DNA of 64,000 nucleotides. Source: Eledone cirrhosa. Lineage: Eukaryota. The stretch covers positions 23,870,001-23,934,000 of the forward strand of contig OZ024753.1 of the NCBI GenBank assembly GCA_964016885.1, given 5' to 3'. A model generated the notes under the pieces. The model did no database searches and was not told where the DNA came from. It saw nothing but the letters and a program-made list of their open reading frames with translations. Shown here in pieces: positions 1 to 45,870 of this stretch (its first letter is position 1; every line of letters starts with the position of its first letter). A program made the translations under genes and the position numbers.

Positions 1-3000
1 CATTACCGTTGAGGGTAGGCGGCCCTCGTGTTACCTCTGCGGAACCAGAGGTCACCTGAGGGCTGTCTGTCCCCAACTTAATAAGAAAACCCCAATCCTG
101 CCTACACCACCAACAACTGCACAACCAACACAATCACCACAACTACCACTACAAAAACAACCACCACAGCTCAAACCAAAACAAAACAATGTTCACCCCA
201 TCCCCCCCACTCAAAAAACAAAAACAATTTCCAAAACACACGCACCACAAACACAACCCGAAAATATACCCCTCCCCTCCAACGCGGAAGATGACCCTAG
301 TTCGTCGTCAGACGAGGAGGAGCACTTCCACACAATCAAAAGAAAAAAAAGAAAACACACCTCAGACACACAAATGAAAACAACCCCTCTCCAAAACATA
401 ACACTGACACCAACACAAAAGAGCTCACAACAACAGCAAACAAAAAACACCACACAAAAACAAAAACATGCATACACATACATAAACACAAGAAACAAAA
501 AACTGTTAAACATTGTGTACAACAACAATCTAATAAAAACACAAGGGCCTAACTTCACCCAGGCAGGGGATTTCCCCCACCTCAAAATGATTAAGGCCCC
601 ACAGTACACCTATAAAACTTTAAAAGACAACTTTAAAGAGGACGTGGGTCCTCCCTGCGTCGGGCCCATTAACCGCGTCCTCCTAAAAAACTACCCCACC
701 CCCTCCCCAAACACCCACACAACTCCAAACTCCCCAACCACACAACACACTGATGCCCCTACACTTCCACAAACCACCACCCCACCGAACAACCCATCCC
801 CACCCTAATGGAAATTGTGCAGCCCGATACATGGCTATGCTAAGAGTAGGCTGTTTAAATGTGCGTGGGCTGGGCTCAACTTGGAAGCAAGCAATGCTTC
901 TAAATGACCTCAGGTCACAACGTATAAATGTGATGGTTATTTGCGAGGCCCGGATCAGCAACGTGCGACAGCTGGCCCCCACCTTTGATGACTTTGAGAT
1001 GCACGCATCTCTCTGTCAGCCCGGAGGTGGGGGTGGGGTTGTCGTTCTGCTGCAAAAACATCTGGGTCTCGCAACACAGATGGTACATTTGGACCCGGAG
1101 GGTCGACTAGTCGTTCTGGACCATGGCCGGGGTAAAGGCGGAGCGTTTAGGTTGGTAGCCGCCTACGGCCCTTTCGGCTCAATGCGGCCGCACTTCTTCC
1201 ATCGTCTGGAGACTTTTCTAGGTACGTCCCGCCCCTTGCTATTAGTGGGGGACTGGAATGGTATCCTAGATGCACGCTGGGACTACGTAGGGGCCTGTCC
1301 CGATAGAGACGGGTGTAATAGCCTCAAAGGGTTAATCGGTCGATTTGACCTGGCCGATAGATATCGACTAGATTTTCCGACTGCGCCAACCTGGACTTAG
1401 GCAAATCGTATGCGGATCATCTAGGTCGTACCTAGATAGGTTCTTAGTTAGAATTAAGGATAAGGACTTTTTAAGTTGTCCAAAAATGCGCATGGTTGGC
1501 TATTCAGACCACAAATTAGTGACCTGCATGGTCAACCTTGACAGAACTCATAGACAGGGACCCGGTTAGTGGAAGCTCAACTTGTCCTTACCGGCAAGTA
1601 AGGCTTACAGGGACCGGATTAGCACGTTAGTTAAGGAGCGGTTGACGGGCGCCATCGTCAACAGCAGGTGGTGGGGATCTCTCAAAAGAGAAATTAGAGT
1701 AGTCTCTATAGTGTTTAGTAAGGAGTTAGCCTCAAATAGAAATAGGAAGGAAAGGGAGTTGGTAGATAGTGTAGAAGAGGCAATTAGAAGCGGCGACGTG
1801 GCCAGAGTGCTAGCGTCGAGAACGGCCCTGGGCCAGTTCTTCGACGCGAAACACAAAGGCTGCATCGTCCGAAGCAAAATACGTGCTCTGGGAAACGAGG
1901 GGACCAAAGCTGTTAGCTGGGCCCGCGTGACAGAAGCCAAAAGAGGGAGCAGATCCACTATCCGGTCTTTGCGAGACCAGGATGGACGGGTGATCCTTGA
2001 ACCTAAGCAGATGTGCGAGGCTTTTCAAAAGCACTTTGCCGGATTGTTCGGAAGGGGCGGGGAGCCGGTTGGGGATGTGGACTTCGGTCCATACCTCGAC
2101 GGCCTGCCGCGTCTCTCGGACAGGGAGGCGAAGTCCTGCGAGGAGCCGATTTCAGCCGCTGAGATAGAGGACGTGCTGAGCCAATGCGGCAAACGCAAAT
2201 CCCCGGGTCTCGATGGTCTTCCATGCGAACTATATCTAGCTATGCCGGATTTGTTCCCCGATCTCCTCGAGGCGGTCTACTGCAATTGGCAACAGAACGG
2301 GAGAATTCCCTGTGCTGTGACCAAGGGCGTAGTCACGCTAGTGAGGAAGGACGAGAACAAGGGGGACGATATAAATAATTTCAGGCCCATAACTCTGCTA
2401 AATACAGAGTTACAGATTTTGGCCAAGGTGCAAGCAAAGAGGTTGGCGCTTGTCGTGGGCAACCTGGTGGGAGATGCGCAGACATGTGCTATCCCGTTCA
2501 GGTCCATCCACGACAACCTCCACCTCATGCATCATAGAGAGGGTTGGGAACGAACCCGGCTTTGGTGGGGCCCTGATCAACTTGGATCAATCTAAGGCAT
2601 TCGATAGGGTTGACCATGGTTACCGGGATGCGGTACTAGCGGCGGCAGGCTTCGGACCCGTTTTCAGGGGCTGGATCAATGCCATGCAGAGCAGCCGCAT
2701 CTCCTCTAGGGTCAAGGTGAACGGCTACCTCTCGGAGCCGTTCGAAATCGCGCGGTCCATCCGACAGGTGTGCCCTCTCTCCTCCCTTCTGTATGTAATG
2801 ACTCTAGAGCCACTGCTGCGGAAGTTGGAGTTGTTGCAGGGCATCCCGTTGGAACCGGGATTGCGGAAAGCGGTGTCAGCCTATGCCGATGACGTAACAG
2901 TAATGGTGTCGACGGCCTCGGAAATCGGGGCGATCGGCACCTTACTGGAGGAGTACGAAAGGTTTACAGGGGCTAAGCTGAACCGGGACAAGTCGATCGG

Positions 3001-4500
3001 TCTGCAACTCGGCACGTGGAGGGGGGCAGATCGATGCTCTCCGATGGCGTCGTCGGGCGCTGGACGGAGGGCCCGGTGAAGTTGCTCGGGGTCTGGTTCG
3101 GACCAGACCTCCAGGTGGAGAAGAACTGGGGTGAGGTAACGAACAGGGTGTTTGCACTGACCCAGAAGTGGGCCGAGTGCAAACTGTCCCTGAAAGGTCG
3201 GGCGGAGGTGGCGAACACTTATATAGCGTCCGTCATCTACTACCGCCTGACCGTTGTGCCTTGCCCAAGGGAAACGCTCGCCAAAATGGAAGAAGCGGGC
3301 TCCTATGCTGAGGAGATCCATCTGCTGTCAACACCCTTCGAAAGGAGGGCTGGGGATGCCGTGGCTAATGATACGTAAACACGCATTAAGGCTACGGCAG
3401 CTTCAGGTATTCCTCTCCGGTCAACCGGTGTGGGCCCCGTTTGTGAGGCGAGCCTTTCCCAGACTCGTCTCACTCACCGAGCTGCAATCCTGGGTCAAGC
3501 AAAGACCGAGAAAACTGGGCGCCTGGCACACCGAGTGTGCCCAGGCGCTCACAGCTCTCTGGCAGACGGACTTGGCTGTCAGTGGAGAATCCACCTCGTC
3601 ATTCTATAGAGGGCTGGTGGTTAGCAGGTGCGACGACGCCCTCGGAGAAGCCCTAGGCATGGAGGAAGACGAACTGGCCAACCTGTTCGGTAGGACATTC
3701 AGCCCGGGACCCATAGATTACTTCCAGAGGTCCCTGGCCTGGCAATGCTACAGAAGGGCTCTGCCCGTTCGAGAAAGGCTCTACAGACACGGGCGCCCGG
3801 GTAGGGACCCCTCAAAAAAGATCTGTCCCAGATGCGTGTGCGACGAGGAAACCGTTGCACACGCATTGGTACACTGCTCGGGCATTGCCGATCTGTGGGG
3901 CTATGTCGAACAACTGCTGTCAAGGGTGGGACCGATCCGGTTGACCACCGAGTCTATTGTAACGATCAAGCCGCCTCCCCTCTTCAAAAACGAAGAAGAG
4001 GCGGTGTTTCTGTGCGTAATAGCCATGGCGAAAGAGGTTGTATGGTGGACGCGTCTGAAAGGACTGAGGTCAGACACCTTTCTCTCTGGCCAACAACTGG
4101 TCCGTTTCTTCCGATATCATTTTGGAAGAAGGATCAGGATGGAGAGAGAGGTGCTACACCCCAGCCGTTTTTATGAAAGATGGGTGAAAGTGGCGAGAAT
4201 GGCCCGTGTGAATGGGCCTTCACTCTACATCAGACTATAGGTGAGGAAGATGAAAGACCAAGGGAGCACCCCTTCTCTGTGCTCCCGAGGAAAAGGGCTG
4301 CACATTTTTTTTCGGGGGTGTGTGCGACCCTCAAGGCGCCTCCTCTCTATTGAGGACTTTGTTATAAATTTTATTTTTTGTTATATTTTATTTTATTTTA
4401 TATATTGTTATTGCCTCCTCCTTATTGAGGACGCCTTGTTTTGTAAACTCCCCCCATTGTACTTGTCCCACGTTTGATGCCCTGGTGGCAAATAAAAGAA
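1..4500 (+). mobile_element. Tx1/L1-clade LINE copy 1 (5' end outside window), degraded
   Basis: ORF1 tail with zinc knuckle CYLCGTRGHLRAVC (frame 2, ~29-70) ending at 808; ORF2 APE-RT-CCHC; AATAAA at 4491-4496 followed by (TA)n. Confidence 0.93.
831..4240 (+). pseudogene. Tx1 ORF2 (APE endonuclease + reverse transcriptase + CCHC), disrupted by stops and frameshifts
   Basis: LNVRGL, GDWN, SPGLDG, NFRPITLLN, LDQSKAFDRV, YADD and CPRC..ETVAHALVHC motifs spread over several frames. Confidence 0.92.
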
Positions 4501-4627
4501 ACATATATATATATATAAATATATATGTGAATATAAAAGAAACATATATATATATATAAATATATATGTGTGTATATATATATATAAATATACATGTGTG
4601 TATATATGTATATGTATATGTATATGT

Positions 4628-4706
4628 ATATTAATATATGTAGAAGTAAACATAGTAAATCCCGTGTCTAAAATTACGAGGGTAGATTACACCTCAATGT
4701 TATTCA

Positions 4707-4744
<38 letters not shown>

Positions 4745-4878
4745 CATTCAACCTGAATCATGTGGGATGTAACATCCCATATGATCCAGGTTGAATGATA
4801 TATAACATTTGTGGTGTGATCTACACTCGTAATTTTAGACACGGGATTTACTATGTTTACTTCTACATATATTAATAT
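4628..4878. mobile_element. ~250-bp fold-back (MITE-like) palindrome
   Basis: Arms ATATTAATATATGTAGAAGTAAACATAGTAAATCCCGTGTCTAAAATTACGAG... and their reverse complement; centre GGGATGT-A-ACATCCC at ~4771; poly-T insertion in the left arm. Confidence 0.8.
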
Positions 4879-5020
4879 TATAATGCTCAGTATTTATACT
4901 TTGAGCTTGTTAATTGCAGGGTATCTATATGAGTTAATAACTATATTGTATTTGTATGTATATGTGTATATGTATATGTATATATATATATATGTATATA
5001 TGTATATATGTGTATACATA

Positions 5021-11839: not shown

Positions 11840-14345
11840 GTAGAAAAGATGAATATAAAATGAAAGTGCTTTTTTTTAAAAGGAATTTATTAGGTATTGG
11901 CATATTTTTCGGTAACAGACGGAATACCTATGTATCGCTGCTTGCGTAATCATATAATGTTAGCAAGTATTCGATAGCAAATGTATAATCAGTTGTCACT
12001 TTTTCAGAGATTTTGGATAAACTGGATAAAATCAGAAAAATTGAAGTATTTATATTAGTAATAGAGGAAGAAGAGAGGGGATAGTATATGACAGATGGTA
12101 ATTCAATTTACTGCTAAACAAGTATATAAAGGGTTTCTAATGAGAATACCATGAGTAAATGGTTCATTTTATCTAAATAAGAATTTTTGGGAGTGCCAAT
12201 TTTAATCTCTACTTGACCAATTGGACAGTGGACAGGGCTGGTCATTTGGTGTAGTAGTATTAATTATAAAGTGTCAATTGGGGAAGGGGGAGATTTCGAT
12301 TGCTGCTGAATAACATCAATGCTAGTAGCCAGCTGGTATATGCATTAGGGAGTTGAATTAAGAAATCAGAAATCTCATTTTATCTATAGCAGTTTATATT
12401 AAATGCTAAATAATAGAAGAGTTGATAGAATTAAGACTAATAGAGAATGTTAATATCTATTTTGACAATCAAACGGAGATAGAGACAGGCGTTCAATCCT
12501 GGTAGTATTTATAATATGAAAATGTAGATCTTAAGCGATGGTTACAGTATAACGATCGCTCTATTCTGTTATTTAATAAAATGTTTTTGGATTTCATAAT
12601 ACAAAATAATTCTACATTACATAATTTACAAAATTCCTGTCCGATGGAATATGGGGGGGGGGGGGGGGGCAACCGCTGTTATATCCCATTTTAGGTGAAA
12701 TTGTTGGTTATTTTCACGCAGTTGCCAAGCCTTGTCTGCGAGTGTTGTTACATAACGCTGGTGTTCATGTTTTATCGAGTAACGATGTCTATAAAGGCGT
12801 GATTTGAAGGAGGTGGCTGTAGATCCCACATAGTACCACTTCTGTCTATCCGATTCGATAGTACATTTGTATACGATGTTGCGTTCAAGACACTGATTGT
12901 TCAACGGACACATCCCTGGTTGGACACAGTTGCAATTATAATTTTGCGTTGTTGTATTGTCATGGATGGGTTGGTGAGGTTGCTTAGGTAGGACAGGATG
13001 TTGTTTGTTGTTTTGTGATGTTATAGCTAATGTTTTACGTGTATTGTTATGTGTTGGAAGGCGCTTATACAACCGTTTTGCGTTAAGCTTTTTATATGTT
13101 GTTCAATATTAGGGGCGGTTGAATATGAAAGTCGAATAGTGTTAGGGTTTAAGATTTTATTATATTTATGTGATGTTGGAAAGTGTTTTTTAAATAATCG
13201 AAAGAATTGTGAGGGTAGATTGGTTTTAATAGAGTTGTTATAGACCGGGTTGTACCAAATATACTCTTTACATCGCCTTCTGTTTGGTGGTGTGCGACTA
13301 TTATTGTGTCTATTGCGGTAGTGTATGTATGGTGGTGATTCTGCGCTATTTCTACTCCTATGGGATTTATTTTGGGTGTTTTGGTGATCTTCGACTATAT
13401 ACTCTATATTATCTAGGTGTCCGGCTTTCCTAAGTGCATCATCATAATACTCGGCATGTTCTTTGAAGGTTTGTTGGTTGGACGACAGGCGGGAGATTCT
13501 AAGAGAAACATTTCTAGGGATGGATTTAATTATAGAGAGTGGATGGTTAGAACTCGTATTTACATATTTAAGGTTCTCATTTAGTTTATGGAACGGTTTA
13601 ATCGTATCTGTATTGAGATTCAAAGTAACATCAAGGAAATTGACCTCTTTGAGGTTATATTCAAATGTAATATTTAATCCTAGTTCCTTAAAAAGCTTTC
13701 TGATATTTTTACGCATCCTTTCTAAATTCTGGTTATTCATATGCTTAACTAATAGGAGCGCATCATCACGGTAGATTCCACCGTGGAGATCCTTGAATTT
13801 TCCTTGTAGTCTGTGGGTGATATAAATTCCCACAAGATCTGTTACTTCCGCCGAATCATTAGAACCCATAGTAATATCAAAATTAGAAGGTCTATCTTTG
13901 CGAACCCAGTAGCTATCATCGAATTTAACTATAGTTTTCCTCGCTTCCATAATAATTTTAATTTCAGCATCTGTAAGGTCGGAATTAGCCTTAGCGAACG
14001 AAAGAGCTTCATGTAGAGTATCAGGTGAAATTGAGGAATAATGTTCATCAATATCAAACTGAATAAATTTTGATTTTTTCTTATCAGTAATGTTATTAAA
14101 CCATCTTATTGCTTCATGAGTGTTACCCCATAGTTTAATTTCTACTTTAACCTTAACTTGGGGGATAATTCTGTCTAGTATATATTTGCTAATTTTGCCT
14201 ATATCAGATTTAGAGGGGCATATAAGTCTAATCTTAGGGTTAGTATCGAAGTTTACCTTGTGGTCCTTCAGGTTGAAGGATGGTATAGCTGGTGTTAACC
14301 TTTGAGCGCTTACTCTCATATTGGATACCTTTTGATGGTCTTTTA
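11840..14345 (-). mobile_element. Penelope-like element (RT + GIY-YIG), 5'-truncated, possibly Nematis-like
   Basis: LKDHK..RLICPSKSDIG, FIQFDI, FDITMGS, YRDD, VNFLDV and SNHP motifs; CNC..CPL..CL; IVYKC..YVGST..FKSRLYRH GIY-YIG; reading frame ends at 12493; 3' boundary approximate. Confidence 0.9.
12493..14319 (-). pseudogene. PLE RT/GIY-YIG polyprotein, two frameshifts
   Basis: ORFs 13027-14319 and 12626-13072, plus a C-terminal frame FCKLCNVE..CNHR after the poly-G slip at 12653-12669. Confidence 0.88.
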
Positions 14346-14365
14346 CTTCTTTCTTCTTCTACAAC

Positions 14366-16668
14366 ATGGATTATTACAACATAACCAATTCAACTAAAGA
14401 CATTCCTATACCTGGTAAATCTGAATTCACCAAACTTCTAATTGAAAAAACTGACTCCTTCGTGAGAAGACTTAGATGGACAGCCTATTTCTATGACCAG
14501 CGCCTAAAAGGGAACTTCTATACCAAAGAACATAACTTCCTCGATCATCTATTTAATTCTAGAAGAAATCCTCCTTCCAACAAAAATCTAGTGCAATTCG
14601 AGGAAGAGTTAACTAAAATAATAAAAAATCTTAAATTCAAGAGATACCCTTACAAAGGACAAGAGCACCTTGTAAATCTCAAGAACACAATTTCTAACCT
14701 AAATTCCTCAAAAAATGTTTTAGTCCACTCTGACAAAACCAATAACTTATATGGTATTTCCAAGGATAATTATAACAACCTTATCCTAAAGGAACTTAGG
14801 AAAAAATATCGTAAAACCAACCATGAAAATTTAGAATACATAAACCTTGAAGCCTCTGAGATTATGTCAAAACTTGGCATTGAAAAAAAGACAGAACCAT
14901 TCCTCCCAAGAACTCCGAGGATAAATCTCAAGGATCACAAAAACAATTTTCGCACTGAACTACCTGTTAGATTAATCGCCCCCTCTAAATCTGATCTGGG
15001 GGTTGTTAGTAAAGCCATCTTGGATAGAATTATCCCACAGGTTCGTTCTAATTGCTCTTCTTTGAACCTAAATTTATGGTTTGGTACTTCTGAAGTGATT
15101 AGTTGGTTCAACAAATTGAATAATAAAAACAAACTAAAATTTGTTCAATTTGATATTGCCAGCTACTATTCCTCCATTTCGCCTTCACTTCTCAATAATG
15201 CTCTATCTTTCGCACTTAAATATTCTGACATCACCACAGATGAACTTGGGAGCATCCGATTAATCCCAATTGACTGATTTAATTGGTATCTTTATTTTGA
15301 ACTCTTTGAGTCGGAAAATTCCTCAACTTCGCGGTGGAATTTATCGTGACGATGGACTCTTTACTATCTTAAATTGCAATATAGTTAACCTTAATATTAT
15401 TAAGAACAATATACGTAATCTCTTTAACCAACATAACTTAAAAATTGAATTTGATAACAGTATCAAACTAGCTAATTTCTTGGATGTATCTCTTAATCTT
15501 GACACTGGCCTATATTACCCTTACCATAAAAACAATGAGAACCTAAATGGTGTTAACTTTAAATCTAACCATCCTACTAATATCAAGAATGCTATAGTTA
15601 GTAATATTGGAAAAAGAATATCTAACCTATCTTCTAATAAAAACATCTTTGATGCTAACGCCAATTACTATAATAACGCGCTTTCTAAAGCCGGCTATCC
15701 TGATAAAATCAAATATAGTAAAGAAACAAATTCTAGAAGAACTTACAGTAGAATAATTAATCATGATCATTCCAATAACTTTAACAAAAGACCTAGATAC
15801 AAAAACATAATCTGGTATAATGCTCCTTTCTCCATCTCTATTAATAACAATATTCCTAAATTATTCTTTAGTGCCTTAAATAAATGCTTCCCTCCCTCAC
15901 ATATCTATAGTAAAATATTTAACAAACACACCATAAAATTTTCTTATTCTACATCCTCCAGCATTTCCAACATTATCTCTAAACACAACAATAAAATACT
16001 AAATACTAAATCTCTTCCTTCCAACACTAAATTTCATAATAATAGTACTCCCGACGTCATTGTAAACCCTAGGCTATTTTCTACAAACCCAAATACAACG
16101 TCAAACACAACTTCGCTAAATGTTCATAATCCCACTCTAAATCAAGAAACTATTATTCCTATCGCAAACAACTTCTCCAATCCAATTCCTTCTATAGATA
16201 ACACTAGGTCACTCATTAATAATCTCTCTGATTGCAATTGCAATTGCCCTATTAAAAATAAATGTCCTCTCAACAACCATTGTCTTGATAAAAACTTAAT
16301 TTACGAATGTAAAGTTATAACTGACACCAATTCCTTCACCTATTTTGGCTCCACTTCCACCTCTTTTAAAGCTCGTCTTTATAACCATCATTCATCTTTT
16401 AAATACAAACTTAAAAGAACCAACACGGCTCTCTCAGAACTCATATGGTCCTTGAAAGACAAAAACATTAAATATAGCATCTTTTGGAAGAAGGTTTCTT
16501 CTGCGTCTACATACTTGAACAGTTCTCTATCTAAAATCTGCAATTTCTGTCTAAATGAAAAATTTACCATTATCTCTAATTTACCATTATCTCTAATCTA
16601 GACGCACTGACTTGTTTTCTATCTGCTTGCATAAATTCCATAAAACATTTCACAAAGTATACAGCTAA
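14366..16668 (+). pseudogene. PLE RT/GIY-YIG polyprotein with an internal RT deletion (~15250) and a 17-bp duplication (16564-16597)
   Basis: Segment between ITTDEL and the GxxD motif is missing relative to the minus-strand PLE; C-terminus continues LFSICLHK to a stop at 16668. Confidence 0.85.
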
Positions 16669-17850: not shown

Positions 17851-17942
<92 letters not shown>

Positions 17943-18081
17943 ATATCTATATATGTATATATATATGTATATATATATATATATGTATGTATATATCTAT
18001 ATATGTATATATATATGTATATATATATATATATATATGTATGTATATATATATATGTATGTATATATGTATGTATATATG

Positions 18082-18133
<52 letters not shown>

Positions 18134-18189
18134 TTTATGTATGTATGTATATATATATGTATATATATATATATGTATGTATATATATG

Positions 18190-18262
<73 letters not shown>

Positions 18263-18626
18263 GTATGTATATATATATATGTATATATATGTATATATAT
18301 ATGTATGTATATATATGTATATATATATGTATGTATATATATGTATATGTATATGTATGTATATATATATATGTATATATATGTATATATATATGTATGT
18401 ATATATATGTATATATATATGTATGTATATATATGTATATATATATGTATGTATATATATGTATATATATATGTATATATAAATATGTATATATATATGT
18501 ATATATATATGTATATATATGTATATGTATATATATGTATATGTATATGTATATATATATATATATGTATATATATGTATATGTATATGTATGTATATAT
18601 ATATATATGTATATGTATGTATATAT

Positions 18627-18705
<79 letters not shown>
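17851..18705. repeat. (TA)n-rich microsatellite
   Basis: Visible. Confidence 0.95.
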
Positions 18706-18707
<2 letters not shown>

Positions 18708-18856
18708 TAAGATGTATGGTAGGTCGTATGTGAATCGCGATGATCACGTCTGACTTACCAAATATGTGACGGTAGCTAGTTAAGCTCTATGCGTATACGC
18801 AGAGCAGAAATATTAGTGAAAAAGAACAAAGGAACTATTATGACATTATAACAAGT

Positions 18857-18912
18857 TTATTGCCGACAGCCGTTTCGTCCGACCCCATGGTGGGACTTAT
18901 CAAGGCATATAA
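18857..18912 (-). ncRNA. Minimal type I hammerhead ribozyme, U3-A8 core variant
   Basis: Reverse complement of 20491-20546. Confidence 0.8.
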
Positions 18913-20490
18913 CATGTGATTGCAAGATCATTGTTTACATCAACGTATCACTCAAGGCTAGCAGTTTGAAATTGTTGTATACATCAGCAACTCCGCTTTA
19001 AGGGGGGCTCTTTTATATTAGTTGTCGGGGTCAGGGATTGAAGTTTAAAAATTAGACAAAAATATATAATTTACGCATCAACATTAAACCAAAAGACTTG
19101 GGGTCCCGTAGAAGCACCTTAGAAAAACCCTCAATGAGTGCATAAAGCTTACAGGCTCCAATAAACCTATTAGTCTAGAAGAAAATTAAGAGTCTAATAA
19201 AATAAGAAAATAAAAATATAAAGTTTCCCTAAAAAATATATAAAGTTCCTATGAAATTTCTTCTAGAGAAAAAATTTTTTTTCCAAAAGAAAAAAAACCT
19301 TCTTCCCCCGAGATCACGTTTACAAAATTCAGAAAACTGAATTGAAAACTAGGTTGAAAGAAACTAATCAATTAGAGGTTAATTCAGAGAGCCTTCCATA
19401 AATCTCTCAGAAAAGGCCCCTTTAATATTTCCAATAGGAACCTCTTCCGAGAGACCCTTCGAAGAATTAAAATTTTAGAGAGCCTTTACGGATAAATATA
19501 AAAACGAATTGAGGAAAATTATACATTAAAAGTTAAAAATTAAAAATTACGGTATTTGGGATATCCGAGGAATTTTCAAAGGGCTGCTTCAACAGATACA
19601 ACTTAGGCATAATAGATACAATAATCTAAGCAATTTAAGTAATTTAATTAGGGAGCAATTCAAGGAGTTCATCAAGTTGGGCAAGATTAAAGAAAGTGGT
19701 AACTAAGAAAATACATAAGCAAAAAGACAATAATCATAAAATGTATCTTCAAGAAGGTATAAGGTAGCTTCAGTGATCTAACCCTGTACTATCACAAAAA
19801 ACATTCCAAAATTATTGATACAGGATTAAAAATCCTCTGATATCCCAAATACCGTAATTTTTAATTTTTAACTTTTAATGTATAATTTTCCTCAATTCGT
19901 TTTTATATTTATCCGTAAAGGCTCTCTAAAATTTTAATTCTTCGAAGGGTCTCTCGGAAGAGGTTCCTATTGGAAATATTAAAGGGGCCTTTTCTGAGAG
20001 ATTTATGGAAGGCTCTCTGAATTAACCTTTAATTGATTAGTTTCTTTCAACCTAGTTTTCAATTCAGTTTTCTGAATTTTGTAAACGTGATCTCGGGGGA
20101 AGAAGGTTTTTTTCTTTCGGAAAAAATTTTTTTTCTCTAGAAGAAATTTCATAGGAACTTTATATATTTTTTAGGGAAACTTTATATTTTTATTTTCTTA
20201 TTTTATTAGCCTCTTAATTTTCTTCTAGACTAATAGGTTTATTGGAGCCTGTAAGCTTTATGCACTCATTGAGGGTTTTTCTAAGGTGCTTCTACGGGAC
20301 CCCAAGTCTTTTGGTTTAATGTTGATGCGTAAATTATATATTTTTGTCTAATTTTTAAACTTCAATCCCTGACCCCGACAACTAATATAAAAGAGTCCCC
20401 CTTAAAGCGGAGTTGCTGATGTATACAACAATTTCAAACTGCTAGCCTTGAGTGATACGTTGATGTAAACAATGATCTTGCAATCACATG

Positions 20491-20546
20491 TTATATGCCT
20501 TGATAAGTCCCACCATGGGGTCGGACGAAACGGCTGTCGGCAATAA
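20491..20546 (+). ncRNA. Minimal type I hammerhead ribozyme, U3-A8 core variant
   Basis: TGCC-TTGATAA-GTCC(CACCATGGGGTC)GGAC-GAAA-CGGCTG-TC/GGCA; predicted cut after C20538; AATAAA at 20542-20547. Confidence 0.8.
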
Positions 20547-20659
20547 ACTTGTTATAATGTCATAATAGTTCCTTTGTTCTTTTTCACTAATATATATATA
20601 TATATGTATATGTATATATATATATGTATATATATATATATGTACATATATATATATTC

Positions 20660-23290
20660 AGGTTTGAGGTTCACCACTGGATAGAGCTGGTCAATTCCGT
20701 ATGGTCAATCTTAATGTAATAATATGGAGAGTACTCAACGTAAAGCAGTTCAACCGTCTTTGTTTTTGTAGTTGGTGGTGCTATTACGGAGTTAAATATT
20801 ATAATGAAATGACAGGAGGCTGGACTTGTGTAAATCCTTGAAAGGTTTATTATACTATGCTCTTTTCAATTACCGGGTTCCGTATGAATCCGGTTATATC
20901 ATCAGGTATTCGAAATATAATAAGTGAATGTAATAGATAAAATCCATGGGGTTGAAAATCGAAGACCCGAGGACGACCGCCATCCAGCATCTTCCACCTT
21001 TGCCGGTCGCCCTCAAGTGATGTGGCTAAAGCTTACAGTGTGCCACTACCGGTCAAATAAAAGAAAACAGAAAGGGATAGGAGCATAAGTCAGCGTTAAT
21101 ATCGTGCCACAAGAAAAAAGAAAGAAAGAAGAGAGAAGGGGGAAGGAAAAAGAAAGAAAGAAAGAAAGAAGAGAGAAGAAGGGGAAGGAAGAAAAGGAAG
21201 AAGAGAATTCAGGGTTAAGGTCAGCTATAAGAAGAAAGACAGAAAGAAAGAGGAGGAAGAGTCGGTATTACAGTCAGGCCAGGAATTTTCGCGAAAAAAA
21301 TTTATTCTAAGGGCCCGTATCTTAACAACTGCTATCGATCAAATATAGGCAAACAAAAAGGGGAAGGAAAGTCAGCGTTAATATCATGCCACAAGGAGAA
21401 AGACAGAAAGAAGGGGGAAGGGAAGAAGAAGAAAAGTCAAGGTTGATGGCTACAAGAAGAAAGATAGAAAGAAAGAGGAAGAAAGGTCGATATTAATGTC
21501 AGACTACAGTCAGGCCAGGAATGGCGCGAAAAAATATTTTCAAAGGGACCCGTATCTTAGCAGAGGTAAATATAGTGTGGGTCTGTATGTTATAATGTGT
21601 GAGCAGAAGATTGGGACGTTACATTTTTGTTTAGATTTATAGGATGAAGTTAAAGATTAATATTTAATATTAACATTATAAAATTAAAGAAATTAGAAAA
21701 TTGAGAGTTAAACAGTTTAACATTTTTAAGGTTGCGATGTTTAAGCAAAGAAAGAGTCTTTTATGAAGAAACTTAAATTTTATTATAGAGTAAAGATTAT
21801 GTCTTTGTTTAGCCGTCAAACAGCATGCGGCGACCACAAGCTTGCGCAGCCCATCACTCGGAGTGATATCGCCTAGCGAAAGATATGGAAATCGATTTTT
21901 CCGAGCACTCTAGGAATGTATAACAGGCTTCAGGTGCGCCAGCAGGAAGTCAGCCTGCATCGTTAGGCCATCCTTGTACAAAACCAGTACTATTCCTTTA
22001 CCCAGGAGGGGGATTTTCTTAAGTAGAGGGAGGCGTGATACATCTAATAGTTCTGATTTGATCTGTAATTTAAAAGTACTATATGGCGGTCAAAAAACCG
22101 GCTTCGCGCCGGGTCCCCGGGGCGAATCAAGCCACTCCGAGTAGTTTCATTTACCGAAAGAAGGTGAAATTTATTTTTCCAAGCACTCAAGGTAGGCCTA
22201 TGCACAAGGGGGCAGGTCCCACCGCCAGGAAAACCAACCCAATAGTCCGACAGAAAGTTGGAACGTTAAAATATAGTTTAGATTTATAGGATGAAGTTGA
22301 AATAATTCAGAATAACATTATAAAATTAAAGAGTAAGAAGATTGAGAATTGAATAAATAGAACATTGAAAATTAAACGTTTAAATAATTAAAACATTTTT
22401 TTTAAGGTTTTGAGTTGCGGGGTTTAGTTAAAGAGAGTCTTTTATGAAGAAACGTTAATTGTATTATATAGATCCTCTATAAGTTATCCTAGTGGGAGGT
22501 AGAGTAAGGGATATAATCGGGTAATATTTATTTTTGTTCTCAGAGTGAGACATTCTAGTGTCGTGTGCTAATGGGTACAAGTGAGTAAACGTCCCAATAA
22601 GAGGAGTAGAAATACATGGACACATAGAAGTAGAATACGTGAAAAAGCACATTAATAAAGCAAAGGTATAAATATATAAATAAACCAACAAGAGTGGTGG
22701 TAGAGTAAGATGGAGAAATCAAGACATAGGAGAAATACAATATAGTTCAGGTTGCAGTATTTATGTTCCCAGGGGAAGACATTCTAGTGTCGTGTGCTAA
22801 TGGGTACACGCGAGTAAAAGTCTGAAAAAGAGGAGTAAAATGTACATGGATGTATAAAAGTAGAATACGTGGAAAAAACATTAATACAGCAAAGGTAGAA
22901 AGATATAAAGATATAAATAAACAAAGAAGAGTGGTGGTGGAGTAAATGGAGAGATCAAAACACAGGAGAAATACAATATAGTTCAAGTTGCAGTCAGGTA
23001 ATGCATATATATGTGGAAATGGAATCAGTGTGTGTTCGAGTCTGAGAATTCAGGCCCTGAAGTATAGGGTAGCGAATTTAGTCAATACAGTACAGTACAA
23101 TACATGTTATGGTATAGTCCGTAGAATTTCGTCGAAGTCTGAATATTCTGAGAGGGAAGTAACAATGGGCCAGGTGGGCGGTAGGCAAAAACACTGTGTA
23201 GCCAAAATACGAATGGTGGTTAGATATATTCAGTCCCATGCCGCTGTTCATTATTACATTTGGAAGTGCTCAACATTACAGGAGCATTAT
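20660..23290 (-). mobile_element. Probable PLE-related 3' region relic built of diverged tandem duplications
   Basis: Hammerhead plus AATAAA near its left end; duplicated blocks 21089/21370, 21630/22277 and 22545/22778; no RT ORF visible. Confidence 0.45.
20852..20909 (-). ncRNA. Type I hammerhead ribozyme, partly decayed
   Basis: ATAC-CTGATGA-13-bp stem II (10 pairs)-GAAA-AGAGCA-TA/GTAT followed by AATAAA. Confidence 0.65.
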
Positions 23291-42160: not shown

Positions 42161-45100
42161 TCCTTGAATCTCAGTCATTGATGTTGGTTAACTGGAAAGT
42201 CCGTTGGATTGAATATCAAGCCACTACCTGCAGCCTCAGATATTCAGGACGTATCGGAGGGTTCTTGCCGTTCCAAGCAAGCATGCCTTTTGAAGCGTTC
42301 CAAAAAGCGTGAAGGGGCCGATTTTCTTTAACCATCCCTGGAAACCTTTGGAGATAGTCCCCAGTGCGCCTATGACAATCGGGATCACTTTGACTTCATG
42401 GCAGTTCCAAATCCTTTTGACCTCCCACTTTAGGTCCTGGTATCGGTTAATTTTCTCCCTCTCCTTCTCTTGCACTCTCGTGTCGAACGGGCAGGCCACA
42501 TCCACAATCAGGAACGATCTTTTTTCTTTGTCCACAACCACCAGGTCAGGTCTATTGTGTTCCAGTTTTTTGTCCGTCTGTATCCTAAAATCCCACAGCA
42601 CCTTCACCTGACTGTTCTCCATCACCGCCTCTGGCCTATGCTCATACCATTTCTCAGAATGTGGTAGATTGTTTACTTTGCACAGGTGCCAGTGGATCAC
42701 CCTGCCCATCACATCGTGTCTCCAGCCCTTATAGTGGGTCTGGGCTAGGTGTTTACACTCGGACACAATGTGAGCCACAGTCTCCTCTCTCTCTCCACAG
42801 ATCCTGCACAGTGGGCTAGCCTCCTCCTTGTAGATATGGTGCTTCAACCACTTCGTTTTGAGGGCCTGCTCCTGCGCAGCCATTAGCATTCCTTCTGTAG
42901 CCTTTTTGAGGTCTCCTCTTCTCAACCAGTTCCATGTCTGTGGATCTCTAAATTCAGTTTTCTCAAAGAAGGTACTATGAAGGGATTTTCCCTTAAGGCT
43001 GCTCTTCCTCCTTGATGTTATTTCCTCCTTGGATATCCCCTGGCCTACTGTCCCCTCCTTCAGTACAGCTCTGAGCATTGGCTCCTTACTATAGGTCACG
43101 TATTTGTATAGGTTGTTTTTCTCCATCTGAACACAGTCCTCTATGCTGATAAGACCTCTTCCACCCTCAGATCTCCTTAGGTAGAGTCTATCGACATCAC
43201 TCCTCTTGTGGAACATGTTGTAGATAGTCAATAGCTTCCTAGTCTTCCTATCCATTTCTTTTTGTTCAGCAACATTCCATCTCAGAATTCCCGCACTGTA
43301 CCTAATAATAGACACAGCTCGGGAATTTACTGCGCTTATGGCATTTCTGCTGTTCAGATGTGACTTCAATACGCTCCTTACTCTCCGAATGTATTCAGTT
43401 CTTAACAATTCCTTCATTTTTTTGTTCTTTATGCCATCAGCCTCCAGAACGCCCAAATACTTGTATCCTTCCTCAGAGTCAATTTCCTTTATCATCTCAC
43501 CTGTTGGTATCTGGATCCCGTTACTTCTGCTCAACCTACCCCTCCTCATCACAATGACTCCACATTTACCAATACCAAACTGCATACATATATCACTGCT
43601 GAAAATACGGACAGTGTCAACAAGCACATCCAACTCCTTCTCACTTTTCCCGAAGAGCTTAAGATCGTCCATGAAGAGGAGGTGATTGATGGTAAGCTCT
43701 CCCCTTCCCAACTTGTATCCTGCTCTCACTTTTCGCAGCATAATGGTCAAGGGCATCAGGGCAAGGACAAACAACAGAGGGGACAGGCTATCTCCCTGGA
43801 AGATACCTCTCTTGATCTTCACGCTTCCCAAGGATACTCCAGTTGATGTCAACTCTGTCTCCCAGGACCCCATACTCCTGCCCAGCAACTGTCTGATGTT
43901 ATCTGCCACCCTGAAGATCTCCAGGCTTTTGGTGATCCAGGAATGAGGCACCATGTCAAATGCCTTTCTGTAGTCTATCCATCCCATGGCAAGATCAGTG
44001 TGTCTCCTCCTGCAATTCCCCATTACCATCTTATCAATAAGCAACTGGTCCTTTGTACCACGTGACTTCTTTCGGCATCCTTTCTGTTCGTCCGGCAACA
44101 AGTTGTTTGTGTGGAGGTGATGGTAGATTTCCTCAGACACAATGCTCGTCAACAGTTTCCACATTACGGGCAGACATGTGATAGGTCTATAGTTGGTAAC
44201 ATCATTACCCTTGATTCGGTCTTTCATTATCAGAACTGTGGTACCTTTTGTCAACCACTCTGGCACCTCACCCGACACCAAGCAGTCATTGAACATGGCC
44301 GTCAGCTTCGGGTGGAGGGATGTTAAATGTTTAATCCAATACCCCTGCACACCATCTGGGCCTGGTGATTTCCAGTTGGTTAGTTTTTTGGCTTGCCCCT
44401 TAAGAGTTTCGACTGTGATACTCAAATCAGTCTGTTGCTGTGCCTGCTCACCGATCTCCCTCTGTACTGTCTCAATCCACCCTGCCTGGGCATTGTGTCT
44501 AACATCCTGCTCCCATATTCCTCTCCAGAATGTTTTAGCTTGTTCCGCCCCAGGGATCAAGTCGTTGCCTCTTTCTTTCCCCTCAAGCTGTCCAAACAGC
44601 ATCTTCTGGTTGTTGTCGAAAATGCGGTTCTGTTTATACTGACTGACTCTGTTCTCGTATCGCCTGATTTTGGCACTCTTTGCTACAATGCGTTGCTTCA
44701 ATTCCTCTATGATAATATTTAGCTTTTTACTCCTAGTTTTGTATTTTATTTCCAGTCTATTTTTAGTGCCTATGTTTTTTAGTGTCCCATTCAGTAGGGA
44801 CTCAAGCTTTCCTATGTCATTTCTCATTTCCCCGATTTGCCCACTCAGTCGCTTCTTCCACCACGGCTCTGCTCTTTCTTGTCTGTTGTTTCCTCTCGCT
44901 TTTATACCAAGTAGTTTCCTCACCGTATTTGCTGTTGCTTTGAGGATATTGTTGCACTGGTGAAGACTCCTCGCCTCAAGGTATGGGATGACTTTGTTTA
45001 CCTTAGCTGTTGTTTCTTTTAACTTTTTCCTGTCTACAAATCTTAGGTTCATAGGTCTCCCACTATCATTGTTCAACTCATCTACCACTAAATTTAGGAT

Positions 45101-45870
45101 GTCAACCGAATCTTGTCCTAGCCCGTCAGCATTCATCTCCTCAGTGGCCGTATCTCTGTTCCAGGTATTATTTATCTCAGTATTCAGATCATTGTCTGCT
45201 TCGGGTGGTTCCTCCGTTCTCAGGACCTCCTCACCTTCATTTCCCGCCGGCTCGCTTGTCTGGCATACTACACCCGCCATATCCAAGCCATTCTCTCTGC
45301 TCAGTTCCTCCAGTTCCAGCTCGCTTATCCACCCATTAGTTCTTATTACCCGAGCCTGCCCGGCCAATTTTTGTTCATCTAATTTAAATAAACCAATCTC
45401 GTTCCAGATGTTATGCATCCGTCTCCTGTAGCCCCCCTCCTTGGGGTTACTTTTCAGGTAGCATTGCATAACAGTTCTATTCAATTCTTTCGTCCAGTTG
45501 GTTCTGGCCCCTTTCCTTCTTCTTCTTCCTCCAACATCAACAGTATTTGGTTGACAGTCAGGTTCCTGCTGCTGAGCCAGGGGGCACCTGTTGGGTGAGA
45601 GTCTGTCACATGACGTTCTAGTCTCCATTTCACCGTTATTCGAACTGTTTATGTTCGATATTTAAACACTCTTATCGAGGATTGGCGAATGTATGTTTAC
45701 ATAGCCATCTGTGGATCCGCCATCCCACTTGGCCCTTGTGTGGCATTATCACCACGCTGTATACGGACACACATAAACAAACAAACACACGGGCAGAAAG
45801 GGCCCCAAAAATGAATAAGCATAAGTTTCATTGTAATGTAGTATTCGAATGTCTGACTTAGTTTTTGTTT
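42161..45870 (-). mobile_element. R4/Dong-like family B, full length
   Basis: ~240-bp 5' UTR, intact ORF, ~75-bp 3' UTR, (TTA)n flanks. Confidence 0.95.
42236..45628 (-). CDS. Intact RT + CCHC + restriction-like endonuclease polyprotein (1130 aa)
   Basis: [69 protein letters not shown]. Confidence 0.95.
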   Translation of the reverse strand: METRTSCDRLSPNRCPLAQQQEPDCQPNTVDVGGRRRRKGARTNWTKELNRTVMQCYLKSNPKEGGYRRRMHNIWNEIGLFKLDEQKLAGQARVIRTNGWISELELEELSRENGLDMAGVVCQTSEPAGNEGEEVLRTEEPPEADNDLNTEINNTWNRDTATEEMNADGLGQDSVDILNLVVDELNNDSGRPMNLRFVDRKKLKETTAKVNKVIPYLEARSLHQCNNILKATANTVRKLLGIKARGNNRQERAEPWWKKRLSGQIGEMRNDIGKLESLLNGTLKNIGTKNRLEIKYKTRSKKLNIIIEELKQRIVAKSAKIRRYENRVSQYKQNRIFDNNQKMLFGQLEGKERGNDLIPGAEQAKTFWRGIWEQDVRHNAQAGWIETVQREIGEQAQQQTDLSITVETLKGQAKKLTNWKSPGPDGVQGYWIKHLTSLHPKLTAMFNDCLVSGEVPEWLTKGTTVLIMKDRIKGNDVTNYRPITCLPVMWKLLTSIVSEEIYHHLHTNNLLPDEQKGCRKKSRGTKDQLLIDKMVMGNCRRRHTDLAMGWIDYRKAFDMVPHSWITKSLEIFRVADNIRQLLGRSMGSWETELTSTGVSLGSVKIKRGIFQGDSLSPLLFVLALMPLTIMLRKVRAGYKLGRGELTINHLLFMDDLKLFGKSEKELDVLVDTVRIFSSDICMQFGIGKCGVIVMRRGRLSRSNGIQIPTGEMIKEIDSEEGYKYLGVLEADGIKNKKMKELLRTEYIRRVRSVLKSHLNSRNAISAVNSRAVSIIRYSAGILRWNVAEQKEMDRKTRKLLTIYNMFHKRSDVDRLYLRRSEGGRGLISIEDCVQMEKNNLYKYVTYSKEPMLRAVLKEGTVGQGISKEEITSRRKSSLKGKSLHSTFFEKTEFRDPQTWNWLRRGDLKKATEGMLMAAQEQALKTKWLKHHIYKEEASPLCRICGEREETVAHIVSECKHLAQTHYKGWRHDVMGRVIHWHLCKVNNLPHSEKWYEHRPEAVMENSQVKVLWDFRIQTDKKLEHNRPDLVVVDKEKRSFLIVDVACPFDTRVQEKEREKINRYQDLKWEVKRIWNCHEVKVIPIVIGALGTISKGFQGWLKKIGPFTLFGTLQKACLLGTARTLRYVLNI

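Follow-up and report, generated by a model that had tools for sequence, protein, structure and literature searches.

The window (the whole 64-kb stretch of DNA analyzed here) carries a 1.8-kb palindrome between two tracts of (TA)n. Both halves derive from the 3' end of a Penelope-like element (PLE), and the features at the locus are the following.

17851 to 18705, no strand: left (TA)n target tract; exact junctions of TA with the tail end number 292 genome-wide.
18706 to 19833, minus: 5'-truncated PLE copy, the last 1,128 nt of a 5,209-bp element, 97.7% identical to L082:2515-3641.
18706 to 18809, minus: 104-nt tail between the element's two fixed ends, the probable start sites of reverse transcription (RT); inverted arms start at 104/105.
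18706 to 18759, minus: predicted 5'-UTR intron, with its 5' splice site (18759/18758) and 53 of its 60 nt, as judged from tandem copies.
18861 to 18907, minus: type I hammerhead motif with a U3-A8 core and a predicted cut after 18865, from the descriptor search.
19577 to 19827, minus: unpaired spacer, by alignment with the parent a part of its 3' region, into which only the longer arm extends.
19828 to 19833, no strand: inner junction, a 6-nt overlap of the arms, unique in the genome.
19828 to 20593, plus: inverted, tail-less, 5'-truncated copy, element positions ~870 to 105; exact junctions of TA with the tail-less end number 280 genome-wide.
20496 to 20542, plus: type I hammerhead motif with a U3-A8 core and a predicted cut after 20538, from the descriptor search; AATAAA is next, at 20542 to 20547.
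20594 to 20657, no strand: right (TA)n target tract.

The arms, 18810 to 19576 and 19828 to 20593, match at 758 of the 767 columns of a local alignment (9 differences, 98.8%) and leave about 251 nt (19577 to 19827) unpaired between them. The near-identical inverted arms described in an earlier note are therefore real. Its bounds for them (18810 to 19565 and 19839 to 20593) belong to the same repeat but ended at the first inner mismatch, which gave a spacer of 273 nt rather than about 251. The description of the unit as ORF-less and set in (TA)n holds as well: no stop-to-stop frame longer than 58 aa is found across 18700 to 20600, and (TA)n flanks the palindrome at 17851 to 18705 and 20590 to 20657. 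The extension on the left, reported as about 100 nt long and hairpin-rich, is present and measures 104 nt, but its folding is just modestly above chance (z -1.84; 7 of 200 shuffles were equally good); the minus-strand GGTAAGT said to lie within it is indeed found at 18753 to 18759. At the inner join, the 6-nt overlap of the arms contains one mismatch (5 of 6 match). No tandem array lies within 18706 to 20593.

Each arm carries one hammerhead ribozyme motif. A descriptor for type I motifs (C3-G8 or U3-A8 core, stems I and II of 4 bp, stem III of 2 bp) finds exactly two in the 64-kb window, 20496 to 20542 on the plus strand and 18907 to 18861 on the minus strand, and none in 500 dinucleotide-shuffled arms. 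The predicted cuts, after 20538 and after 18865, coincide with those proposed earlier (20538/20539 and 18865/18864, one hammerhead per arm). An Rfam scan at E<=1 returned only microRNA matches driven by (TA)n, with the hammerhead family absent. AATAAA overlaps the end of the plus-strand motif. U3 and A8 replace C3 and G8 in these cores, and helix III consists of 2 pairs plus a loop that is self-complementary through G-U pairs (duplex, -9.7 kcal/mol). For the monomer, the lowest-energy fold (-13.0) differs from the active fold (-10.8). There is one sense hammerhead per strand, so that the dimeric form required by ribozymes with a weak helix III is impossible in cis. Among 64 copies at 58 loci, frequent changes are confined to core position N7 and loop II, as would be expected of a motif maintained by selection. 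An ATG in good Kozak-like context within loop II opens a 16-codon frame (20515 to 20565, plus); it stands in a different frame in the older subfamily and is probably not conserved.

These motifs resemble the minimal hammerheads that PLEs carry in metazoans (Cervera and de la Pena 2014, PMC4209133), among which type I forms with a short palindromic helix III are described and the U3-A8 core appears as a naturally occurring form, reported from PLEs of Schistosoma. Nearby pairs on opposite strands also appear in that survey, 100 to 700 bp apart, and are ascribed there to truncated PLEs. Here the two hammerheads face outward because each arm finishes with the element's 3' end, and they lie 1.6 kb apart because the arms are longer.

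What element do the arms come from? The 3.0-Gb genome of the animal itself was queried with 18706 to 19840, yielding 1,305 candidates, of which 40 were scored. Among these 40, the top 30 loci, a choice biased toward long, young copies, cover positions ~1 to 1128 (counted from the tail end) at 95 to 100% identity. A common downstream sequence follows position 1128 in 27 of the 29 loci other than the window's own; the exceptions are L017, which inverts there, and L025, which ends at 1111. Reconstruction of the parent used 20 of these 27 loci, extended to 10 kb, and 30 more from a search with the 5' end of the ORF, with 16 regions fetched at length. The resulting unit is 5,209 bp long and, in the window-minus sense, comprises a 72-nt 5' UTR, a 2,592-nt ORF, and a 2,538-nt 3' region that terminates in the hammerhead and the 104-nt extension; 7 more nt join tandem copies. 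An 877-codon open frame is present in 3 of the 16 fetched regions, and the copy at L082 encodes an intact protein of 863 aa. The parent is thus an autonomous PLE with an intact RT/GIY-YIG ORF, and its family has young, intact, ORF-bearing copies. Judged by alignment, the spacer is ordinary parent 3' region, since 18706 to 19833 is colinear with L082:2515-3641 at 97.7% identity.

Most of the 30 loci with an ORF 5' end have tail and hammerhead immediately upstream of the ORF as a pseudo-LTR, and the layout of L082 agrees. When copies stand in tandem, the tail runs on to the end of a 60-nt GT..AG stretch, which stops 72 nt short of the start codon. This stretch is predicted to be a 5'-UTR intron with GGTAAGT as its donor; the window copy lacks the predicted acceptor, which falls 7 nt past the end of the tail. 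No joint across the predicted intron was found in four contig sets, which are not on record as RNA. Retention of a spliceosomal 5'-UTR intron is a known feature of PLEs, as described in PMC8557442.

The 2,538-nt 3' region (L082:2515-5052; G000:C4 near 320.91 Mb), which much exceeds that of the listed Hydra families, is AT-rich in its outer part and GC-rich in its inner part, and a block of short degenerate repeats near element 1100-1290 varies by subfamily. The inner part also holds, at L031 ~2550-2610 (plus), a G-rich tract followed by a YY1-like motif, a putative antisense promoter. An antisense frame of about 90 to 100 codons (element ~1580-1900; L031:1943-2260, plus) is open in most subfamilies. 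Its shared changes, 14 synonymous and 15 non-synonymous, gave a p of 0.017 in 1 of 24 frame tests, a weak signal of synonymous excess that is not significant after correction for the 24. The frame's start codon is absent in the youngest subfamily, no homologue was found among longer proteins, and Atlas recognition stood at 1132, with the best match (0.90) to an unnamed cluster. The signal of a second candidate frame, element 2250-2540, vanished when more copies were added. Three full-length units of an older subfamily stand head-to-tail at L092 and L093 (G000:C2:219146000-219165999) and repeat about every 5.27 kb. On C4, near-identical copies cluster at L082/L083/L084 (320.0 to 320.9 Mb) and at L123 to L127 (204.1 to 204.6 Mb); these are probably segmental duplications, not separate insertions.

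The 863-aa protein carries RIRWR (36-40), SDKT at 121, YRDD, a linker CxCX5C (C722-C724-C730), a YVG of GIY-YIG type, and a C-terminal CxxC..E..N..CPH (C820-C823, E, N, C848-H850). Only one Cys (C745) lies upstream of YVG, the CxxC half of a CCHH motif being missing, while the histidines remain downstream. All 66 relatives have Y[RV]DD; among the 36 of at least 650 aa, DK[TS] occurs in 34, the CxCX5C linker in 31, and ADKG in none. Pfam detected zero families in the full ORF and a weak GIY-YIG match (E 0.009) in the isolated C-terminal part, and a PDB sequence search with the ORF gave no meaningful match. An initial reading as a member of the Neptune clade was dropped, the linker being CxCX5C and DKT being found.

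By these motifs the element is assigned, if not quite cleanly, to the Hydra clade of EN+ PLEs. As characterized by Craig et al. 2021 (PMC8557442), that clade has a single ORF with RT plus a GIY-YIG domain at the C terminus, DKT, RW(K/R), the CxCX5C linker, and CxxC and CxH around E and N, all of which have their counterparts here; the RWK motif takes the form RIRWR, with R in place of K. The hammerhead near the 3' end and insertion into (TA)n, seen here across loci, are likewise shared, as is the inverted 5'-truncated copy, recorded in that account for Penelope-13_HM. The differences from the families listed in the same source (PMC8557442) are several: (i) the unit is 5,209 bp long versus 1,080 to 3,045 bp in 27 listed families, roughly double their length, and so misses the typical, though not strict, Hydra size of <3 kb; (ii) the 3' region has 2,538 nt, unlike those listed; (iii) the tail has 104 nt versus 30 to 40 nt, some three times as much; (iv) the hammerhead core is U3-A8 versus C3-G8; and (v) the ORF, of 863 aa, has a longer low-complexity linker.

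Is the palindrome itself a unit that moves? It is not, because its inner junction occurs once genome-wide: a 30-nt pattern across it has 1 match, the search being an exact match with one N, which diverged copies may escape. Palindromes do recur, with other junctions. An inverted arm is present in 18 of the 30 loci surveyed (two short loci were not extended, and arms there may be missed), and its outer end lies at element 104/105 beside (TA)n in 17. The inner breakpoints vary from ~200 to 4,945, and 8 of the 12 clean joins overlap by 1 to 8 nt.

The two fixed ends of the family are sharp, and they pair in a strict manner. Exact patterns for them match genome-wide at 292 junctions of TA with the tail, 280 of TA with the tail-less end, and 242 internal borders of tail and arm. 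Pairing was counted on contigs C1 and C2, which were fully listed (90 tailed and 84 tail-less ends). There, 32 of the 90 tailed ends stand opposite a tail-less end within 5.3 kb, with spans of 137 to 5,242 nt, and TA-flanked ends form no like-with-like pair at all (0 tail-tail, 0 tail-less/tail-less). One extra pair, 11.7 kb apart and derived from a local duplication, was left out of the count. With the internal pattern added, 46 of the 84 tail-less ends have a tailed partner, and two facing pairs of tail-bearing ends appear; in each of these, one end belongs to a longer copy as its upstream pseudo-LTR. Contigs from other samples also have loose ends running into (TA)n at both fixed sites, and in the window each outer end of the insertion has a TA/AT match to its target.

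The palindrome is very probably a single insertion, encoding no protein, of an autonomous Hydra-clade PLE, in which a tailed stretch of 1,128 nt from the element's 3' end is joined to an inverted one of 766 nt that lacks the tail; it likely arose when both cut ends of (TA)n primed on the element's RNA and the short copies were joined. The earlier note was right to link the locus to PLEs with inverted pseudo-LTRs, and right that the family is young. Its inference of a non-autonomous PLE derivative or retrozyme-like unit finds no support. A fixed-structure mobile unit of that kind would account for the missing ORF, the two intact hammerhead motifs, and the many close relatives of each part. Such a unit is nonetheless highly improbable when the junction is found once by exact match, the inner joins vary by locus, tandem monomers are absent, and all parts are colinear with an element that bears an ORF. 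What the other copies turn out to be, 3' regions of an autonomous PLE with palindromes only at differing junctions, is in substance what that note had named as speaking against its own reading. Animal non-LTR retrozymes (bioRxiv 10.64898/2026.07.22.740005; PMC7229834) are, as described, similar in being non-coding and in having a type I hammerhead and PLE-derived sequence. Compared with the retrozymes of the first of these accounts, the locus has no tandem hammerhead monomers, no repeated unit, and no sign of independent mobility; it has one motif per strand, a junction that is unique, and breakpoints that are variable.

Could the palindrome instead be an assembly fold-back at an ordinary truncated copy, or the sum of two events? 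Assembly is known to run into difficulty at inverted repeats, as noted in PMC8557442, and no read or contig crosses the window junction in four runs, which are short and from other individuals; one contig per run leaves the window sequence at 19833 and follows the parent rather than the window join. The 9 differences between the arms argue against such an artefact, as does the right arm, which ends at the family's second fixed end just as 280 other sites and independent contigs do, and the short overlap at the join resembles other loci. An artefact therefore has very little probability. Two independent insertions, the second in or beside the first, with the arms homogenized later by gene conversion, would be in keeping with a family that targets AT-rich DNA and nests within the same tracts, and a few loci do have arms just 96 to 97% alike or extra pieces at the join. 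This history, too, is most unlikely, if by a hair less so: the inner join has no (TA)n, mixed pairing of tailed and tail-less ends in 32 of 32 cases is not expected from independent events, and the arms have private variants in common. Two variants, at 19127 and 19489, occur in both window arms and in none of 29 other copies, and the arms are 99.0% identical over aligned columns, versus a median of 97.6 to 97.8% to other copies and 98.6% to the nearest one. At most other loci, the arms are 98.5 to 100% alike. Of course, the private variants that the arms share could also stem from gene conversion at some time after insertion, or from a pair of RNAs made by the same source copy.

How might a single insertion give rise to two unlike arms? 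The following series of steps is proposed. (i) The GIY-YIG endonuclease would cut both strands within (TA)n. (ii) Priming by the left target 3' end would take place at the outer start site and yield the tail. (iii) The right target end would prime at the inner site, 104 nt in, giving the tail-less arm. (iv) Both cDNAs would stop early, ~1,130 and ~870 nt from the element end. (v) The two short cDNAs would be joined through a few matching bases. (vi) Repair would fill in the second strands. The resulting copy in the window is most likely inert. The strict mixed pairing suggests that each DNA end primes at an RNA start site of its own, with each site used once per complex. Whether every two-armed insertion is made in this way, with one dimeric RNP priming both break ends on the same RNA, the two sites being 104 nt apart, is a tentative proposal, for which we would put the chances at somewhat under even.

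This model of priming and joining leans on in vitro work in another clade, the Poseidon element PAc of the green anole (Frangieh et al. 2024, PMC11167929). According to that study, both strands of the DNA were cut, and then extended, by the purified protein where the sequence is AT-rich; RT began within the RNA at two sites, between which the genomic tail lies; the protein is predicted to be a dimer; and hammerhead cleavage was not required. The two systems have in common a tail that lies between two fixed ends, downstream of the hammerhead, as well as AT-rich targets and a tandem pseudo-LTR layout. They differ in that the ORF starts inside the hammerhead there and 72 nt after the predicted intron here. 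They also differ in that the in vitro reactions reported for PAc had no strand bias of start sites, whereas in the insertions here a tailed end is paired with a tail-less one.

Another question is what the palindrome might do if transcribed. By thermodynamic prediction, the fold of the plus strand would have a minimum free energy of -1383 kcal/mol with 90% of bases paired, and it would pair the entire hammerhead with the other arm. The competition between dsRNA and ribozyme that the earlier note foresaw thus stands as a fold prediction, and masking of the hammerhead by arm pairing in a read-through transcript is plausible. The genome holds dozens of comparable palindromes. That this copy actually is transcribed by read-through and serves as a source of long dsRNA, with small RNAs, A-to-I editing, and a masked ribozyme, would seem rather unlikely: the window consists mostly of retroelement fragments, with no host gene identified among them; the element's promoter, if it sits where other PLEs have theirs, in the pseudo-LTR, would face outward from each arm; and such a fold arises from any young inverted repeat.

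Overall, the palindrome and its hammerheads are real, yet they make up an ordinary PLE insertion of a described pattern, as inverted 5'-truncated copies, one-sided tails, and a bias for (TA)n are already on record for PLEs (PMC8557442). The locus is one among several hundred truncated insertions of a young family. Mildly new is the family itself, with its Hydra-type motifs, 2.5-kb 3' region, 104-nt tail, and strict pairing of ends (32 mixed, 0 like). No literature on this PLE family or on strict tail pairing was found in a search that had most subscription journals outside its scope. With intact copies, two sharp ends, and many palindromic insertions, the family makes it possible to count events relevant to an unsettled step of PLE transposition, the origin of the inverted copy and the one-sided tail. 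If the proposal of one RNP acting at two sites is true, the family would be an unusually clear record of how PLEs insert, and the intact 863-aa copies and the 2.5-kb 3' region, which may hold the antisense frame, would offer a ready in vitro system for PLE inversion and tail origin in the Hydra clade. Such insertions have also scattered near-perfect inverted repeats of 0.1 to 3.6 kb throughout the genome; if transcribed, these might supply pathways that act on dsRNA.

The neighborhood of the insertion holds other retroelements. Two further sets of PLE ORFs stand back to back at 12626 to 16601, one on the minus strand (12626 to 14358) and one on the plus strand (14336 to 16601). DKT and CxCX5C are found in the plus-strand set. 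Between it and the (TA)n tract left of the insertion lie ~1.25 kb of non-coding DNA, in which the hammerhead descriptor finds no match. Farther to the right, at 42236 to 45661 (minus), lies an intact-looking ORF of 1,141 aa from a non-LTR retrotransposon, with RT and a C-terminal pattern of a restriction-like endonuclease; a near-identical ORF is found in L049. Directly to the right of the insertion, 20660 to 23290 is non-coding and contains several degenerate direct repeats spaced ~230 and 650 nt.
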